Shown in pieces: positions 689-46,056 of a DNA stretch of 64,000 nt (positions are counted from its first letter, which is position 1; the number at the start of each line of letters is the position of its first letter). The position numbers and the translations under genes were made by a program. The notes under the pieces were generated by a model that had not been told where the DNA came from, searched no databases, and saw only the letters and a list, made by a program, of their open reading frames with translations. The stretch is from Escherichia phage ELT1. The stretch lies in sequence record MZ892903.1, one strand, 5' to 3'.

Positions 689-2313
<1,625 letters not shown>

Positions 2314-35747: not shown

Positions 35748-37335
<1,588 letters not shown>

Positions 37336-37343
37336 AATAAAAT

Positions 37344-37357
37344 GGGCCTTGCGGCCC
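37344..37357. terminator. Stem-loop gggcc-ttgc-ggccc
   Basis: Perfect 5-bp stem between denA start and nrdB stop. Confidence 0.4.
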
Positions 37358-37362
37358 ACTCC

Positions 37363-37865
37363 TTAAAAATATTTTTTAAAACTCATCATAACTTTATCAT
37401 CAACATCATTATCAATCTGTGCTACAAGGTAAGATGACAGTTCTACTTCTTGTGGCGCGGATTGAACATTATCAGAATTAAGATATTCACGAATCCAAGG
37501 ATACGGATGTTTAACCGGAGCATCAGTAATTGGGCATGGAAGACCACACTGTTTCATACGAGATACAGTTAAGTAATCAATAAAGCTCCACATGCTATTT
37601 GTATTTAATCCAGGAACATCACCATCTTTAAATAAATGAACTGCCCAGTCTTTTTCTTGGCGGTTGACTTCCATAAAAATATCAACTGCTTCTTGTTCAC
37701 ACTCTTGGGCAATTTTAACCCATTCATCACCATCAGTGCCAAGTTGAAGTTGACGAATAATATATTGGGTGCCTTTAAGGTGAAGCTGCTCGTCACGAGC
37801 AATGAACTTCATAATCTTGGCATTACCTTCCATGATTTCCATATTCTTGTGGAAGTTAAAGGTAC
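37363..37865 (-). CDS. nrdB: Ribonucleotide reductase small subunit, exon 2
   Basis: Continues exon 1 after splicing to give ...FYVSFA-C-TFNFHKNMEIMEGNAK..., aligning with E. coli NrdB [22 protein letters not shown]; 3' splice site follows intron-terminal G. Confidence 0.8.
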
Positions 37866-38956
37866 CGTTATGTTCGATTGAGCTCGCTAATTCTCAACCC
37901 GTTCTCTTATGAACTGCTACATATTACTATGCAGACCAGACTATATCACAATCCCAGAGGGATTCTCCCCATTTCGAGTCGCTTGACCCTACGTCCGAAG
38001 ACTAGTCGTTGAACCTTGCTTTGCAATTGTCGCCGTGCCATCGTTTATATGTTGATGGTGATAAATCTTTCTTATCACAATATGGACAATTCAATTGAAT
38101 TCTATTTGGATTTAATTTACATCTGTCATTATGTTTTAGATAAAATCCAGGACCTTTACCAATGTGACCGCAGAAATCACATGTGATTTCTTTTTGTGCA
38201 GGATGGGTCCCGTTCTTAACCATTTCTAATGTTTTTGCTGATGTTCTTTTCTTATGGTCTTCTGACAAGAAATGATGTGAACCATCATTTACCCGTTTTG
38301 ATTGAGTTTCTGACTGCATTTTACCACCGCAAAATACATGAGTACCTTCTTTTATAGCTGCAATATTGCGTTCTTTAACTTTTGCAATATGCTCAGCTTG
38401 TTGAAAATTATGTATACCTAATGCAACTCTATTTAAATTAGATTTACGCTGTATTTCACCGTCTAAAAGATGAAATGTACCATTTTCTATCTTAGATTTA
38501 ATAGAGGCAATATTTTTAGCTCGTACTTCAGGGATATTAAAAATCTGGATTTCTCTAGATTTTGCAGCTTTAGAAGCTAATTCAGAAATTTCTTCAGGAG
38601 AATATTTCATTCTAAGCTTTATAGCATGACAAGCCTGGTAATCTTTTTGAGCTAAATGTATATCATAATGTTCCTGTATAGAAAGGCACATCAAATTATC
38701 TAAATCATTATTTTCACGGTTACCGTCTTTATGATGGATTTCGTATGTTCTTCCATCAGAATCTTTAGGTATAGGTCCGTTAGCATCTATCCAAATTTTT
38801 CTATAGTTCAATTGTGCATCCTCTTAAAAGTATAATCATATTTATATTATACTAATTAAAGGTGCAAGCAAAACCTTGGCTGCTAGTTTTCCTATAAAGG
38901 ACTTTCCAGCAATTAAAGGAGTTTTCGATAAACGTTACCGTTTAAAGGCGCATTTT
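37866..38956 (-). mobile_element. Group I intron in nrdB (about 1091 nt) carrying an HNH endonuclease ORF
   Basis: Interrupts a conserved NrdB segment; 5' exon ends in U, intron ends in G; intron 5' sequence aaaatgcgccttta; contains ORF 38002..38811. Confidence 0.8.
38002..38811 (-). CDS. I-TevIII: Intron-encoded HNH homing endonuclease (full-length I-TevIII-like)
   Basis: 269-aa ORF; HNH region (YEIHHKDGNRENNDLDNLMCLSIQEHYDIH), repeated DNA-binding modules and C-terminal Cys-x2-Cys...His...Cys fingers. Confidence 0.8.
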   Translation of the reverse strand: MNYRKIWIDANGPIPKDSDGRTYEIHHKDGNRENNDLDNLMCLSIQEHYDIHLAQKDYQACHAIKLRMKYSPEEISELASKAAKSREIQIFNIPEVRAKNIASIKSKIENGTFHLLDGEIQRKSNLNRVALGIHNFQQAEHIAKVKERNIAAIKEGTHVFCGGKMQSETQSKRVNDGSHHFLSEDHKKRTSAKTLEMVKNGTHPAQKEITCDFCGHIGKGPGFYLKHNDRCKLNPNRIQLNCPYCDKKDLSPSTYKRWHGDNCKARFND

Positions 38957-39632
38957 ACGCAAAAGATACATAAAAACGAATAGCTTCTAAGGCATTAATA
39001 ACGTGTAAACAGAGGTAAAGAGACTTCATTAAAGCACGTTTAGCTTCGGCTTCTTGTTTAATAGCTCGGTTTAAACGAAAGTCGGCATCAGGAGATTCTT
39101 TAGCTAGTTCTACAAATTCTTTAGCATTTTCCCATTCACGGGTTTTAACCAAGACATCATCATAATAGCGACCGATAGATTCAGCACGTTTCATGATAGC
39201 TTCATCTAATACAATCTCATCAAATACCTTCGATGGATCAGTATAAAGATTTCGCATGATATGAGTATATGAACGGCTGTGAATAGTTTCACTAAAAGTC
39301 CATGTAGCAACCCATGTATCAAGACTTGGGTCTGAAATTAATGACATAAGTACTGCAGACGGTGCACGACCCTGAATGCTATCTAGAAGTGATTGATACT
39401 TCAGGTTATTAGTAAAAATATCTTGCTGATATTGAGGAAGCTTGTTAAATTGTGCAGCATCCATCATCAAGTTTACTTCTTCAGGACGCCAGAAAAAACT
39501 GATCTGCCGCTCAATGAGTTCTTCAAATACTCGATGTCGTTGAATATCATATCGAGCTAAACCTAATCCAGAACCAAAGAACATCGGTTCATTCAAAACA
39601 TCAACTGGATTTGTATTAAAAACTGTACTCAT
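38957..39632 (-). CDS. nrdB: Ribonucleotide reductase small subunit, exon 1
   Basis: 225 codons plus 1 nt; di-iron ligand region and IRFYVSFA segment conserved with class Ia NrdB. Confidence 0.85.
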
Positions 39633-40327
39633 TTAGAATCCTTAAATTTACATTTATCATAATGCCATCTTAAAGCATTGCCTTTATTAACTTTCTTACC
39701 ACAGTGCGGGCAAGGTGGATACTCTGCTCCTTGTTTAGTTCTCAAAGAAATCAAATCACGGGTTTCTTTAGTATGAGGAACATCTCTTGTCGGAGAAATT
39801 GTACCATACATTGGATTAAGCACGCCGACTTTAGCAGCAGCTATATTCTTTTTAGCTTCTTCAGTTTTAGGCTTTCTCATCTTTTTCTTAGTTTCTTCGC
39901 TTTTAGCCCTTCCTTTGGTTGCCGCCGATATTTTGTGTTTGGTTTCTTCTGTTAAACGCAGACCTGTTTTCGCTTTTGACATTTTCAGTCTCGTTTCTTC
40001 AGAAATGACCGTACCTTTGCGAAATTGTGAATTTAACTTCTTTGCATGGGCATATATCTTAGAATGAACTTTATAATGACGTTTCTTAGTTCCTTTCATA
40101 TTGCACATCATGAAAAATGCGAATATAACAGATTTTACCGGATAAATCTTTGATAAAATAGCATGCGCTATAAAATGTTCTCTGGCTGTTAATTCAACTA
40201 AATTTTCCTTATCATCAGAACCTCCCATACATCTAGGGATTATATGATGTGTCTCTTTATATTCTGATAAAGATTCCCGAGCCTGAGCTCGGGAAATTAG
40301 GTCATTATAGATTTTTTGATAATTCAT
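39629..40327 (-). CDS. mobE: Free-standing HNH endonuclease (mobE-like) between nrdA and nrdB
   Basis: 232-aa ORF; HNH motif (HHIIPRCMGGSDDKENLVELTAREHFIAH), repeated NUMOD3-like ETRxKMSxAK modules, C-terminal CPHCGKK...H..C finger. Confidence 0.75.
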   Translation of the reverse strand: MNYQKIYNDLISRAQARESLSEYKETHHIIPRCMGGSDDKENLVELTAREHFIAHAILSKIYPVKSVIFAFFMMCNMKGTKKRHYKVHSKIYAHAKKLNSQFRKGTVISEETRLKMSKAKTGLRLTEETKHKISAATKGRAKSEETKKKMRKPKTEEAKKNIAAAKVGVLNPMYGTISPTRDVPHTKETRDLISLRTKQGAEYPPCPHCGKKVNKGNALRWHYDKCKFKDSK

Positions 40328-42591
40328 TACAATTTACACGCTGCGCAATCATCGGCTTTTGGAGTTTCTATTTCGTAATCATCAGTACCGGAACCATCAC
40401 GAGTATTATGATAATAGAAGCTTTTAATGCCATAATACCATCCGTATAGCATGTCATCAATCATTACAGACATTGGAACCTTTCCTTTTGGAAAAATCTG
40501 CGGGTCATAATATGTATTCGCTGAAGCTGATTGACATACCCATTTCAGCATAATAGCTACTTGCGTAAGATAAGGTTTATTACCTTTTTTAGCTAATTTC
40601 CACGTATAATCATACAGGTCTATGTTATGCTCAATATTGGGCACGACTTGATTAAAGGAGCCCTCTTTTGATTCTTTAACAGAGACTGGTCCACGTGGAG
40701 GCTCGATACCGTTTGTACTGTTAGAAACTTGGGAAGATGACTCACATGGCATAAGTGCTGATAATGTGCTATTACGGATGCCAAAGAGCTTAAGGTCTTC
40801 CCGCAGCGACGACCAGTCACAAACGTATTTTGGAGCTGCGATTTGGTCAATCTTTTTATTGTACCAGTCGATAGGTAATTCGCCTCGAGACCAACGAGTG
40901 TCTGAATAATATTCGCAAGGTCCTTTTTCTTTGGCGAGCTTAATGGATGCTTTAATGAGTCCATACTGTAATCTCTCAAATAGTTCATGTGTTAAATCGT
41001 TAGCATCTTCATAAGAAGCAAAATTACTTGCCAGCCAAGCTGCATAGTTAGTAACACCTACGCCAAGGTTTCGACGCTTTTTAGCTTTTTCTGCTTCAGG
41101 AACTGGATATCCTTGGTAGTCCAAAAGATTATCAAGAGCACGAACTTGGACTTCTGCCAATTCATTAATTTTATCTTGGTCTTGCCAATCGAAGTTATCC
41201 AACACAAATGCGCTAAGGGTACACAATCCAATTTCAGCATCAGGGCTATTCACATCATTTGTTGGAATAGCAATTTCACAGCACAAGTTACTCTGACGAA
41301 TAGGTGCCTTTTCACGAATAAACGGAGTATAGTTATTCGTATTATCAATGAACTGTACATAAATCCTTGCTGTTCCTGATCGTTCAGTCATGAGCAATTC
41401 AAATAGTTCACGGGCTTTAATACGCTTTTTACGAATATTAGGATCTTTTTCTGCTGCTTCGTATAATTCACGGAAACGGTCTTGGTCTTTAAAATAAGAA
41501 TAATAAAGTTCGCCACCCATTTCATGTGGACTAAACAAAGTAATGTAATCGTTCTTTCCAAAACGTTCCATCATCAAATCATTCAGTTGAACGCCATAAT
41601 CCATATGACGGATACGGTTTTCTTCTACGCCTTTGTTATTTTTCAAAACGAGAAGATTTTCAACTTCCAAATGCCAAATAGGATAATAAGCAGTAGCAGC
41701 GCCGCCACGAATTCCACCCTGTGAGCATGATTTAACAGCAGTCTGAAAATGTTTCCAAAAAGGAATAACACCAGTATGGCGTACTTCACCCATGCCAATC
41801 TTAGAACCTTCGGCACGAATCATACCAACGTTAATACCAATTCCAGCGCGTTTGGAGATATATTCAACAATTGAAGCGGAAGCCTTATTGATAGACTTTA
41901 ATGAATCACCTGCCTCAATAACAACGCATGAACTAAACTGTCGAGTCGGAGTACGACAGCCAGCCATAATAGGAGTTGGCAATGAAATCTGTCGAGTAGA
42001 TACTGCTTCATAAAAACGAATAACATGTTTTAATCTATCAACAGGTTCATCTTGATGCAATGCCATTCCAATAGTCATAAATGCAAACTGTGGAGTTTCA
42101 TAAATTTGACCAGTGGTTTTATCTTTAACTAGATATTTTTCTTTTAATTGCATCGCCCCGGAATAAGTAAATTCCATATCCCGCTCGTGCTTAATTTTTG
42201 ATTCTAAAAATGTAATTTCTTCTGCTGAATATTTTGACAGCAGTTCAGGGTCATATTTACCTTCATTTACACAGTAAGAAATATGGTCAATAAATGAACG
42301 TGGTTCATACTGCCCATAAACATGCTTACGAAGAGCGAACATTAAACAGCGAGCGGCTACATATTGGTAATCAGGCTCTTCAACCGAAATAGAATTCGCA
42401 GCAGCCTTAATGACAATAGTCTGAATATCATCAGTTGTCATTCCATCACGGAGATAAGATTTAATATTTTCATATAATTCATAAGGATCTACTGATGTTC
42501 CTTCAGCTGCCCAAGATAAAACTTTAATAATTTTTTGCGGGTCAAAGCTCTGAGAAACACCACTACTTTTGATAACATTAATTAATTGCAT
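40327..42591 (-). CDS. nrdA: Ribonucleotide reductase large subunit
   Basis: 754-aa ORF; catalytic NxCxE (SNLCCEI) region; length matches T4 NrdA. Confidence 0.95.
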   Translation of the reverse strand: MQLINVIKSSGVSQSFDPQKIIKVLSWAAEGTSVDPYELYENIKSYLRDGMTTDDIQTIVIKAAANSISVEEPDYQYVAARCLMFALRKHVYGQYEPRSFIDHISYCVNEGKYDPELLSKYSAEEITFLESKIKHERDMEFTYSGAMQLKEKYLVKDKTTGQIYETPQFAFMTIGMALHQDEPVDRLKHVIRFYEAVSTRQISLPTPIMAGCRTPTRQFSSCVVIEAGDSLKSINKASASIVEYISKRAGIGINVGMIRAEGSKIGMGEVRHTGVIPFWKHFQTAVKSCSQGGIRGGAATAYYPIWHLEVENLLVLKNNKGVEENRIRHMDYGVQLNDLMMERFGKNDYITLFSPHEMGGELYYSYFKDQDRFRELYEAAEKDPNIRKKRIKARELFELLMTERSGTARIYVQFIDNTNNYTPFIREKAPIRQSNLCCEIAIPTNDVNSPDAEIGLCTLSAFVLDNFDWQDQDKINELAEVQVRALDNLLDYQGYPVPEAEKAKKRRNLGVGVTNYAAWLASNFASYEDANDLTHELFERLQYGLIKASIKLAKEKGPCEYYSDTRWSRGELPIDWYNKKIDQIAAPKYVCDWSSLREDLKLFGIRNSTLSALMPCESSSQVSNSTNGIEPPRGPVSVKESKEGSFNQVVPNIEHNIDLYDYTWKLAKKGNKPYLTQVAIMLKWVCQSASANTYYDPQIFPKGKVPMSVMIDDMLYGWYYGIKSFYYHNTRDGSGTDDYEIETPKADDCAACKL

Positions 42592-43147: not shown

Positions 43148-43459
43148 TTACACCGCCATTTTTCCTTTCAAGACACCGTGGGATTGATAATCTTTGAGAA
43201 CGAAATCTTTAGGCCTGAGTTTAAGAATGTATTCCAATTGTTCTTTAGTAGAAAGATAGCGGAATTTATAAGGCAATCCGCCTATTACCAGTTCACATAG
43301 TTCTTTAGGCTCACGACGCAAAATTTCTTTACATTGTTCTACGTGATTCATATAGATATGAGTATTACCACCAGAAAATATCAAATCTCCTGGAATAAGA
43401 TTACACATCTTAGCTACAATATGAACTAACGCAGCATATGATGCAATGTTGAACGGTAG
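43148..43459 (-). CDS. td: Thymidylate synthase, exon 2
   Basis: Begins LPFNIASYA...; exon junction ...ttcttgggt|ctaccgttc... matches the T4 td splice context as recalled. Confidence 0.9.
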   Translation of the reverse strand, partial: LPFNIASYAALVHIVAKMCNLIPGDLIFSGGNTHIYMNHVEQCKEILRREPKELCELVIGGLPYKFRYLSTKEQLEYILKLRPKDFVLKDYQSHGVLKGKMAV

Positions 43460-44475
43460 CATTATGTTCAGATAAGGTCGTTAATCTTACCCCGGAATTA
43501 TATCCAGCTGCATGTCACCATGCAGATCAGACTATATCTCCAACTTGTTAAAGCAAGTTGTCTATCGTTTCGAGTCACTTGACCCTACTCCCCAAAGGGA
43601 TAGTCGTTAGGCATTTATGTAGAACCAATTCCATTTATCAGATTTTACACGATAAGTAACTAATCCAGACGAAATTTTAAAATGTCTAGCTGCATCTGCT
43701 GCACAATCAAAAATAACCCCATCACATGAAATCTTTTTAATATTACTAGGCTTTTTACCTTTCATCTTTTCTGATATTTTAGATTTAGTTATGTCTGAAT
43801 GCTTATGATTAAAGAATGAATTATTTTCACCTGAACGATTTCTGCATTTACTACAAGTATAAGCAGAAGTTTGTATGCGAACACCGCACTTACAAAACTT
43901 ATGGGTTTCTGGATTCCAACGCCCGTTTTTACTTCCGGGTTTACTGTAAAGAGCTTTCCGACCATCAGGTCCAAGTTTAAGCATCTTAGCTTTAACAGTT
44001 TCAGAACGTTTCTTAATAATTTCTTCTTTTAATGGATGCGTAGAACATGTATCACCAAACGTTGCATCAGCAATATTGTATCCATTAATTTTAGAATTAA
44101 GCTCTTTAATCCAAAAATTTTCTCGTTCAATAATCAAATCTTTCTCATATGGAATTTCTTCCAAAATAGAACATTCAAACACATTACCATGTTTGTTAAA
44201 AGACCTCTGAAGCTTTATAGAAGAATGGCATCCTTTTTCTAAATCTTTAAAATGCCTCTTCCATCTCTTTTCAAAATCTTTAGCACTTCCTACATATACT
44301 TTATTGTTTAAAGTATTTTTAATCTGATAAATTCCGCTTTTCATAAATACCTCTTTAAATATAGAAGTATTTATTAAAGGGCAGTCCTACAATTTAGCAC
44401 GGGATTGTCTACTAGAGAGGTTCCCCGTTTAGATAGATTACAAGTATAAGTCACCTTATACTCAGGCCTCAATTA
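43460..44475 (-). mobile_element. Group I intron in td (1016 nt) carrying I-TevI
   Basis: Intron starts taattgaggcctgagtataaggtgac..., ends ...ataatg; length 1016 nt equals the T4 td intron. Confidence 0.9.
43607..44344 (-). CDS. I-TevI: Intron-encoded GIY-YIG homing endonuclease I-TevI
   Basis: 245-aa ORF; N-terminal GIY-YIG (MKSGIYQIKNTLNNKVYVGSA), zinc finger CKCGVRIQTSAYTCSKC, C-terminal DNA-binding region. Confidence 0.92.
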   Translation of the reverse strand: MKSGIYQIKNTLNNKVYVGSAKDFEKRWKRHFKDLEKGCHSSIKLQRSFNKHGNVFECSILEEIPYEKDLIIERENFWIKELNSKINGYNIADATFGDTCSTHPLKEEIIKKRSETVKAKMLKLGPDGRKALYSKPGSKNGRWNPETHKFCKCGVRIQTSAYTCSKCRNRSGENNSFFNHKHSDITKSKISEKMKGKKPSNIKKISCDGVIFDCAADAARHFKISSGLVTYRVKSDKWNWFYINA

Positions 44476-45023
44476 ACCCAAGAAAACATCTACTGATCGT
44501 TGATACCACTGCAAATCCAAATATCCATTACGCACATTAAACTGATAAAACATATGACAAGGCGGTAATGACATATATTTAAGTTCAGCTGGATTCCACG
44601 CAGAAACAATTTGACGCCTATCATTCGGCAGTTTTTTAATACGATCAACAACTTCTACAATTTGGTCTACACCGCCAAAATCACGCCATTGTTTTCCATA
44701 AATTGGACCAAGTTCACCGCTATGGTATCCTAAATCTTTTGCTTGATTTTCGTAATTTTCATCCCAGACTGTTTTGCCTTGAATTAATGAATCATGCTGA
44801 ATTAATCGCAAATCATTGACATTTGTGCTTCCCGATAAAAACCATATTAGCTCAGCAATGCAAGCTTTCCAGGCGAGCTTCTTAGTCGTTACTGCAGGAA
44901 AACCTTTAGTTAAATCCCAGCGTAATTTAGTACCGAACAAAGCAATTGTTCCTGTGCCTGTTCGGTCATCGGTTTCATAACCGTTTTCCAGGATATCTTT
45001 AATTAAAAATTGGTATTGTTTCA

Positions 45024-45024
<1 letters not shown>
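44476..45024 (-). CDS. td: Thymidylate synthase, exon 1
   Basis: Starts MKQYQFLIKDILENGYETDDRTGTGT (T4 TS N-terminus as recalled); 183 codons; exon 1 plus exon 2 = 286 aa. Confidence 0.9.

Positions 45025-46056
<1,032 letters not shown>

Follow-up and report, generated by a model that had tools for sequence, protein, structure and literature searches.

A probable RB3-type group I intron with a full-length I-TevIII reading frame in the nrdB gene of Escherichia phage ELT1

The nrdB gene of Escherichia phage ELT1 lies in two pieces, separated by an insert that itself encodes an HNH endonuclease. This arrangement raises the questions of whether the insert is a group I intron with an endonuclease that is still functional, and how that endonuclease is related to MobE, the free-standing enzyme encoded nearby. 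We examined the locus within the window, that is, the whole 64,000-nt stretch of sequence record MZ892903.1, starting from a preliminary description made from the DNA letters and a list of open reading frames. All genes here are encoded by the minus strand and follow one another as nrdA (42591..40327), mobE (40327..39629), nrdB, denA (37359..36925), and rnlA, an order that T4 and RB3 share. The interrupted gene was resolved into the following parts:

38957..39632, minus strand: nrdB exon 1, 676 nt, ending in ...IRFYVSFA plus U38957, placed by the open reading frame list, splice arithmetic, and alignment to E. coli R2.
37866..38956, minus strand: probable group I (IA2-type) intron, 1091 nt, beginning with AAAAUGCGCC and ending in ...AUAACG, with its terminal G at 37866.
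37363..37865, minus strand: nrdB exon 2, 503 nt including the stop codon, beginning with GU-ACC-UUU.

When read without splicing, exon 1 runs directly into an in-frame UAA. Joining U38957 to the GU at 37865 creates the Cys codon UGU, followed by TFNFHKNMEIMEGNAK, and restores the reading frame; the fused junction consists of ...UUUGCGU followed by GUACCUUU. The joined exons encode a NrdB protein of 392 aa, residues 3-388 of which align to E. coli R2 (E 7.6e-125) in a single unbroken stretch, and the junction falls within the conserved motif FYVSFAC. The preliminary description had the NrdB frame broken after ...IRFYVSFA and resumed with C, as aligned to the uninterrupted E. coli NrdB, and its coordinates proved exact; the final U of the exon, the final G of the intron, and the insert of about 1091 nt that it reported correspond to U38957, G37866, and 37866..38956.

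A 1401-nt query across the insert was 98.7% identical to RB3, where the region is annotated as nrdB (joined CDS) plus I-TevIII; the association of nrdB, intron, and open reading frame (ORF) is therefore not a chance observation. The query matched 693 phage records, 84 of which span the insert in full (best 99.5%). In a three-way alignment with T4, the introns of ELT1 and RB3 differed at 3 nt, all within the ORF, and neither the 5' core (145 nt) nor the 3' core (136 nt) deviated from RB3 (100% identity). The T4 intron equals the ELT1 intron minus two single bases and the 491-nt segment given below, which leaves 598 nt:

38257..38747, minus strand: segment deleted in T4, 491 nt, coding for the HNH domain and linker, located by the three-way alignment.

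This segment was found in 84 phage records of the collection, with a full-length ORF at 87-99% identity. The short T4-type form of the intron occurs in about 42 records, and the remainder of the 693 appear to be either intronless or too diverged to tell. In the T4 record itself, the ORF remnant is labeled a defective endonuclease whose proximal half bears a deletion. The comparison with both introns thus bears out the earlier statement that the ORF is truncated in T4 and full-length in RB3, and that ELT1 has the full-length form. More distantly, matches of 71-75% identity to the 3' core occurred in introns from Staphylococcus, Bacillus, and other phages. We hold with high confidence that the element is the RB3-type nrdB group I intron, a self-splicing IA2 RNA with an I-TevIII homing endonuclease gene; the IA2 subgroup is as published for the T4 nrdB intron.

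The P1-P9 folding check proposed in the preliminary description was run, and a complete group I fold could be threaded by hand. It extends from P1 to P9.2 in canonical order, with 72 base pairs in 14 helices, among them P7.1/P7.2 and P9.1/P9.2:

38948..38960, minus strand: P1, 38960..38957 paired with 38951..38948 (exon GCGU with the GCGC-side guide of the intron), with a U38957·G38951 wobble at the 5' splice site.
38879..38944, minus strand: 5' core with P2, the P3 5' strand, P4/P5, and the P6 5' strand, from threading and local fold.
38944..38929, minus strand: P2, UAAACG-GUAA-CGUUUA, with a GUAA loop.
38921..38916 with 37970..37965, minus strand: P3, threaded by hand.
38911..38881, minus strand: P4/P5, from threading and local fold.
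38880..38879, minus strand: P6 5' strand; P6 and P6a enclose the ORF.
37876..38025, minus strand: 3' core with the P6a/P6 3' strands (38025..38013), P7, P7.1, P7.2, the P3 3' strand, P8, P9, P9.1, and P9.2.
38007..38003 with 37943..37939, minus strand: P7, which crosses P3 (pseudoknot).

P7.1 is capped by a UUCG loop, P7.2 and P8 are located 3' of P7.1, P9 carries a GUAA loop, and P9.1 and P9.2 lie at the 3' end of the core. The wobble pair in P1 is flanked by three G-C/C-G pairs and is invariant in six phages.

Base pairs were counted in an alignment of the ORF-less cores of ELT1, T4, Salmonella phage S16, HY03, Pu-Krd-SF3, and AV116. Across the six cores, 99.3% of 431 cells pair, compared to 32-41% in controls with the partners shifted by 1-3 columns. 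Compensatory changes were seen at four pairs in these six closely related sequences: two in P2 (A-U to G-C and G-C to A-U), one in P5 (U-A to A-U), and one in P9 (A-U to G-C). In HY03, the P5 strands UCCU/AGGA have become UCCA/UGGA, with a new GAAA loop. None of 500 shuffles reached the covariation score, which comes from only six closely related sequences, and P1, P3, P4, P6, P7, and P8 are invariant in all six, so that covariation neither supports nor contradicts these helices. P6a is only tentatively placed in the fold, since T4, HY03, and Pu-Krd-SF3 cannot form its pair C38868-G38019, and since it overlaps the outer stem of the hairpin at the ribosome-binding site (RBS). Local folds independently recovered P1/P2, P4/P5, P7.2/P8, and P9-P9.2, and the minimum-free-energy fold of an ORF-deleted mini-intron contained P1, P2, P4, P5, P8, and P9-P9.2; the P3/P7 pseudoknot and P6/P6a were absent from this minimum-free-energy fold and were threaded by hand.

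These results bear on a quite different explanation, namely that the interruption is not a splicing intron and that nrdB is split or disrupted, with its halves translated separately and an endonuclease gene inserted between them. Many database records are annotated in this sense, with two NrdB CDSs (nrdB_1, nrdB_2) and a hypothetical protein, and an Rfam scan of the whole window at the gathering threshold and E<=0.01 returned no intron match. In a sub-scan of 37700..39100, model RF00028 matched with 33.9 bits (E 1.4e-6), below its gathering threshold of 50 bits. The 3' half was well aligned, comprising J6/7-P7 GGUUCAACGACUA, P3', P8, J8/7-P7' GAUAUAGUCU, and P9, and both GGUUCAACGACUA and GAUAUAGUCU aligned to the consensus with high posterior probability; the 5' half was mis-threaded into the ORF. 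As controls, the proven T4 intron (X04140) and the short AV116 intron scored 35.7 and 35.9 bits, with the same mis-threading and also below threshold. Because these controls score alike, the Rfam shortfall is attributed to the long insertion (an 832-nt loop-out) and not to a missing fold. A split gene is further contradicted by the complete group I core with its U·G splice-site pair, terminal G, and compensatory changes, and by the exons joining in frame inside a conserved NrdB motif. In S16, the ORF is 87% identical and the intron cores are about 97% identical, and this higher conservation of the cores points to constraint at the RNA level. Moreover, T4 provides a classic example of self-splicing in a nearly identical intron (X04140 joined CDS; PMC1865063). 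We consider a split gene so improbable that it hardly needs to be entertained. The T4 nrdB intron reportedly self-splices in a guanosine-dependent manner, and the core identity of 96-100% suggests that the ELT1 intron would do the same.

With an RB3-type intron as the preferred reading, the state of its endonuclease was examined:

38002..38811, minus strand: I-TevIII ORF, 269 aa with a TTG start, 268/269 identical to RB3 I-TevIII (CAA41802, AIT72961).
38802..38668, minus strand: HNH domain of I-TevIII, residues 4-48, Pfam HNH_3.
38181..38119 and 38088..38023, minus strand: zinc fingers of I-TevIII, residues 211-231 and 242-263, CX2CX12-13HX3C twice.

The ORF ends, with its last sense codon and UAG stop, in the P7 5' strand and the first base of P7.1, so that the reading frame overlaps the catalytic core. 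Such an overlap is usual for T4 introns. The protein matched Pfam HNH_3 (PF13392) over residues 4-48 with 48.7 bits against a cut-off of 24.8 (E 6e-13) and phrog_12324 over 1-269/269 (E 2e-193), and its residues 173-269 also matched the PHROGs family of the 97-aa T4 remnant. The TTG start is located seven bases after AAGAGGA and is shared with RB3 (KM606994, X59078), S16, and HY03. In the RB3 enzyme, mutation of any of H26, H27, N39, and H48 abolishes cleavage, and mutations of C211, C214, C242, and C245 impair binding (PMC1865063); all eight residues are intact in ELT1. An intact, full-length HNH endonuclease of 269 aa at 38002..38811, as first described, is thus confirmed by the near-identity to RB3 and by the preserved key residues. 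A phmmer search with I-TevIII detected no relative among PDB sequences, and a single-sequence AlphaFold2 model was unusable (mean pLDDT 30.6). A Pfam FlgM match at residues 74-114 (26.2 bits, cut-off 25) was judged to be a chance resemblance of a helical segment and was discarded, there being no flagellar context.

The intron could splice and still carry an inactive or unexpressed endonuclease (TTG start, D23Y), persisting only through trans-homing by the neighboring MobE, as in T4. T4 MobE does mobilize the defunct T4 nrdB intron (PMC2790892), the ELT1 MobE is intact and T4-type, and D23Y, the sole amino acid change relative to RB3, sets the protein one residue apart from the tested enzyme, three residues before catalytic H26. 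However, neither the TTG start nor the sequence upstream of it differs in RB3, and S16 and HY03 also have Y23, so that D23 of RB3 looks like the exception. In addition, the catalytic and zinc-binding residues are all kept, and the full-length ORF has been maintained at 87-99% identity in the 84 records. An intron that depends on MobE alone is therefore, in our judgment, quite unlikely, and by analogy to RB3 the ELT1 intron is presumably mobile.

Upstream of the ORF start, three elements were found that could govern its expression:

38815..38866, minus strand: predicted RBS hairpin, with the Shine-Dalgarno sequence AAGAGGA (38825..38819) paired with upstream CCUUU.
38839..38846, minus strand: T4 late-promoter motif TATAAATA, exact match, in the loop of the RBS hairpin.
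38856..38873, minus strand: operator-like copy of the homing site, UUUUGCUUGCACCUUUAA compared with the fused exons (UUUUGCGU joined to GUACCUUUAA), 16/18 identical.

The local fold of the hairpin has an energy of -17.9 kcal/mol (z -3.0) and pairs AGAGG of the Shine-Dalgarno sequence with CCUUU; S16 keeps the hairpin despite a U-A to U·G change and a 3-nt loop insertion. The copy of TATAAATA at 38839..38846 is the only one on the minus strand between 30097 and 48427, and a late promoter of I-TevIII within an RBS-sequestering hairpin is a published model (PMC2988022). A sigma-70 promoter scan of the region gave no more sites than shuffled sequence. The local alignment of UUUUGCUUGCACCUUUAA to the homing site scored 14, and the best of 500 shuffles scored 13. 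Since an operator-like site that overlaps the I-TevIII promoter is described in the same review (PMC2988022), 38856..38873 may function as an operator in ELT1 as well.

The second endonuclease of the locus is encoded between nrdA and nrdB:

39629..40327, minus strand: T4-type mobE, a free-standing HNH endonuclease gene with an intact 232-aa ORF and 98.6% nt identity to T4 mobE plus nrdB.1.
40295..40274, minus strand: internal hairpin terminator-like site in mobE, from a terminator scan.

The mobE ORF lies 673 nt upstream of the intron 5' end. ELT1 mobE is 65% identical to the RB3 gene annotated as mobE, with only the first ~55 aa in common. Its product matched Pfam HNH and, three times, NUMOD3 (46 bits), and belongs to phrog_655.

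In the preliminary description, I-TevIII and MobE had been credited with the same modular build and with a common origin, and a pairwise alignment had been proposed. When the alignment was run, BLASTP detected similarity in the N-terminal HNH region (17/55 identical, E 0.006) and in the C-terminal CX2CX12-13HX3C finger (13/28 identical, E 3e-4), and none beyond. The shared build therefore holds for these two parts. It does not extend to NUMOD3, which is confined to MobE: PF07460 was not found in I-TevIII, whether the whole protein, the 138-aa linker, or the five repeats singly were searched at E<=10. The five internal repeats of I-TevIII end in G-[TS]-H-x-F, and hhalign against the MobE repeats showed no similarity (probability 0.6%).

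If the two proteins were true paralogues, an ancestral HNH gene would have been duplicated locally, and one copy would have moved into the intron. Both do begin with MNY.KI, both have the HNH domain at the N-terminus, and their C-terminal fingers agree in the CX2CX12-13HX3C spacing and are 46% identical over 28 aa; their genes are less than 700 bp apart. Nevertheless, their HNH domains fall into different Pfam families (HNH_3 for I-TevIII and HNH for MobE), the proteins are assigned to different PHROGs, and their repeat regions are unrelated by profile. Furthermore, other T4-like phages and Vibrio phages encode free-standing endonucleases with the I-TevIII double finger (38-52% identity), one such enzyme being annotated as SegD, and the MobE-type HNH head sits on an unrelated tail in the RB3 gene annotated as mobE; both observations point to module exchange. 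A common origin thus retains the HNH and finger similarities in its favor, and is contradicted by the family assignments and the repeats. We rate a local duplication as improbable. Module shuffling fits the shared parts better than a common origin of two whole genes, and this view is already in the literature (PMC1865063; PMC2790892).

The flanks of the intron combine RB3-type and T4-type sequence, and the boundary was compared with a mapped nick position:

39507..39511, minus strand: MobE nick position, nrdB nt 122-126, mapped on intronless T2 nrdB (PMC2790892).

Near the intron, nrdB exon 1 resembles RB3 (39350..38957, 0-4 differences in every 50 nt), and T4 differs from ELT1 at 58 positions in 39200..39001. 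An RB3-like exon 1 next to the intron, with T4 strongly different, is the expected signature of co-conversion. The T4-like tract comprises about 400 nt with one 1-nt indel, and no differences at all were found in 39800..39493. The tract without differences from T4 ends 15-19 nt past the MobE nick position, with the first difference at 39492, and its boundary would mark a recombination event. We advance as a speculative possibility, which may well be wrong, that ELT1 is a natural recombinant uniting a T4-type MobE with an intact RB3-type I-TevIII on nrdB, and that the boundary could be a fossil of MobE-initiated gene conversion in the wild. Only one other record of the phage collection covers the combination of MobE and I-TevIII end to end. 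An intact T4-type MobE beside an intact RB3-type intron, with the T4 tract ending at the nick site, is the only point of mild novelty here; the pairing and its mosaic boundaries add a small natural data point on the reshuffling of the T-even nrd region by endonucleases.

Anatomy, RB3 identity, fold, and residue conservation were read from ELT1 itself, and when splicing, cleavage, mobility, and late expression are taken over from the RB3 and T4 literature, the element would operate as follows. The intron would fold from P1 to P9.2, and exogenous guanosine would cut after U38957 at the U·G wobble in P1; the exons would then be joined after terminal G37866, creating UGU (Cys) and a functional NrdB of 392 aa. 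The I-TevIII ORF would be looped out of P6a, its 3' end running into P6a, J6/7, and P7. In the early pre-mRNA, the ribosome-binding site of I-TevIII would be locked in the hairpin. A late transcript from TATAAATA would start in the 3' arm and lack the 5' arm of the hairpin, so that I-TevIII would be translated only late, and the enzyme may repress its own promoter by way of the adjacent near-copy of the homing site. By homology with RB3 (PMC1865063), I-TevIII made late would bind to intronless nrdB in dimeric form, using its two zinc fingers, and repair from the intron-bearing copy would transfer the intron together with flanking exon sequence.

The nrdB intron with I-TevIII is already known, having been described in 1991 and characterized biochemically in 2007, and the present case adds little that is new, given that 84 phage records have the full-length form. 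Its value lies mainly in annotation: many deposited genomes list two nrdB fragments plus a hypothetical protein at this locus, and an Rfam threshold scan misses the intron owing to the long ORF in P6a.

The closest known system is the RB3 nrdB intron with I-TevIII (Eddy & Gold 1991, X59078; Robbins et al. 2007, PMC1865063), which occupies the same insertion site in the same gene and has the same length of 1091 nt. Its ORF is identical to that of ELT1 at 807/810 nt and 268/269 aa, with the same TTG start, late promoter, and RBS hairpin; RB3 differs by three nucleotide substitutions, one of them non-synonymous (D23Y), and by another upstream neighbor. The T4 nrdB intron (X04140, NC_000866) shares the insertion site and core fold with ELT1 (5' core identical, 3' core 96%), and its ORF has the same C-terminal 97 aa as I-TevIII of ELT1, but the HNH domain is deleted. 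It is immobile alone and needs MobE (PMC2790892), whereas the ELT1 intron has a full-length I-TevIII ORF. T4 MobE (Wilson & Edgell 2009, PMC2790892) is an HNH nicking enzyme with the same target gene, nrdB, as I-TevIII. It is free-standing, has NUMOD3 repeats and a single finger, and is promoterless and co-transcribed with nrdA, whereas I-TevIII is intron-borne; MobE nicks nrdB at nt 122-126, and I-TevIII makes a double-strand break near nt 660. I-HmuI of Bacillus phage SPO1 is likewise an intron-encoded, modular phage HNH enzyme with an extended DNA-binding region (PMC1865063), but it is a monomer that nicks one strand, unlike the dimeric I-TevIII. Finally, the T4 td intron with I-TevI, an intact copy of which also lies within the window, is likewise a group I intron in a gene of nucleotide metabolism with an ORF looped out of the core. 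As with nrdB and I-TevIII, expression is restricted to late times by an RBS hairpin and the cut is distant from the insertion site; I-TevI, however, belongs to the GIY-YIG class and works as a monomer, in contrast to the dimeric HNH enzyme I-TevIII (PMC1865063).

The sequence running from mobE, the free-standing HNH endonuclease gene, into the first exon of nrdB was compared with phages T4 and RB3, and a tract identical to T4 was found to end close to a known cleavage site.

39492..39900, minus strand: T4-identical tract and its boundary, from the comparison with T4 and RB3

Between 39800 and 39493 (minus strand), there were zero differences between the window and T4, against a background of about 2-7 per 100 nt, and the first difference past this identical tract was located at nrdB nt 141 (39492). 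The published MobE nick site, nrdB nt 122-126 (PMC2790892), corresponds to 39511..39507 on the minus strand, placing the nt 141 difference 15-19 nt beyond it. From nt 165 to 279, the window departed from both T4 and RB3 at identical sites, which suggests, from the sequence comparison, a third parent for this segment; RB3-like sequence was observed from about nt 300 onward.

Within the nrdB intron, the least certain helix is P6a, which encloses the I-TevIII ORF. Its putative 5' strand (38863..38869) overlaps the outer stem of the hairpin that sequesters the ribosome-binding site (38815..38866), and the UGCA at 38866..38863 has two alternative partners, 38025..38022 or 38818..38815. In this folding model, P6a and the hairpin may compete.

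The linker of I-TevIII contains five loose repeats, each ending in G-[TS]-H-x-F, and these matched none of the Pfam repeat families. Residues 74-114 (38470..38592) matched the Pfam family FlgM, an anti-sigma-28 factor, at 26.2 bits, barely over the curated cut-off of 25 (28.5 bits when the linker alone was used as the query). This is probably a chance likeness of a helical segment (...KNIASIKSKIENGTFH...).

The nrdB intron is widely left without annotation in deposited T4-like genomes; in many of the phage-collection matches, NrdB is entered at this locus as two distinct proteins, accompanied by either a hypothetical protein or an HNH endonuclease. The record of Salmonella phage S16 contains two I-TevIII CDSs that overlap each other.

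An insert also splits td, on the minus strand at 43148..45036:

45036..44473, minus strand: td exon 1 ORF, C-terminal ...RSVDVFLG
44344..43607, minus strand: intact GIY-YIG ORF of 245 aa within td, N-terminal MKSGIYQIKN...
43462..43148, minus strand: td exon 2 reading frame, starting LPFNIASY

The GIY-YIG ORF is recognisable as I-TevI, and the insert resembles the group I intron of T4 td; an Rfam scan at whole-window scale did not report it.

The RB3 gene annotated as mobE (1238..1969 of its locus) shares only the first ~55 aa, the HNH head, with MobE of T4 and the window; its C-terminal part is unrelated and lacks both NUMOD3 and the Cys-His finger. It may be a hef-type replacement, of the kind that Sandegren et al. 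2005 are said to have described. The window mobE (39629..40327, minus strand) is a single unbroken ORF of 232 aa, whereas T4 RefSeq NC_000866 (5717..6417 of its locus) carries two additional single bases, aligned near 39978 and 39892, that break the gene into two, mobE with 141 aa and nrdB.1 with 83 aa. In other T4 records mobE is annotated as one gene, and the RefSeq split may be an artefact of sequencing or may reflect variation between strains. Within the 5' part of the window gene, a GC-rich hairpin of 9 bp with a U-rich tail behind it (40274..40295, minus strand) agrees with the intrinsic terminator that has been described inside T4 mobE (PMC2790892).
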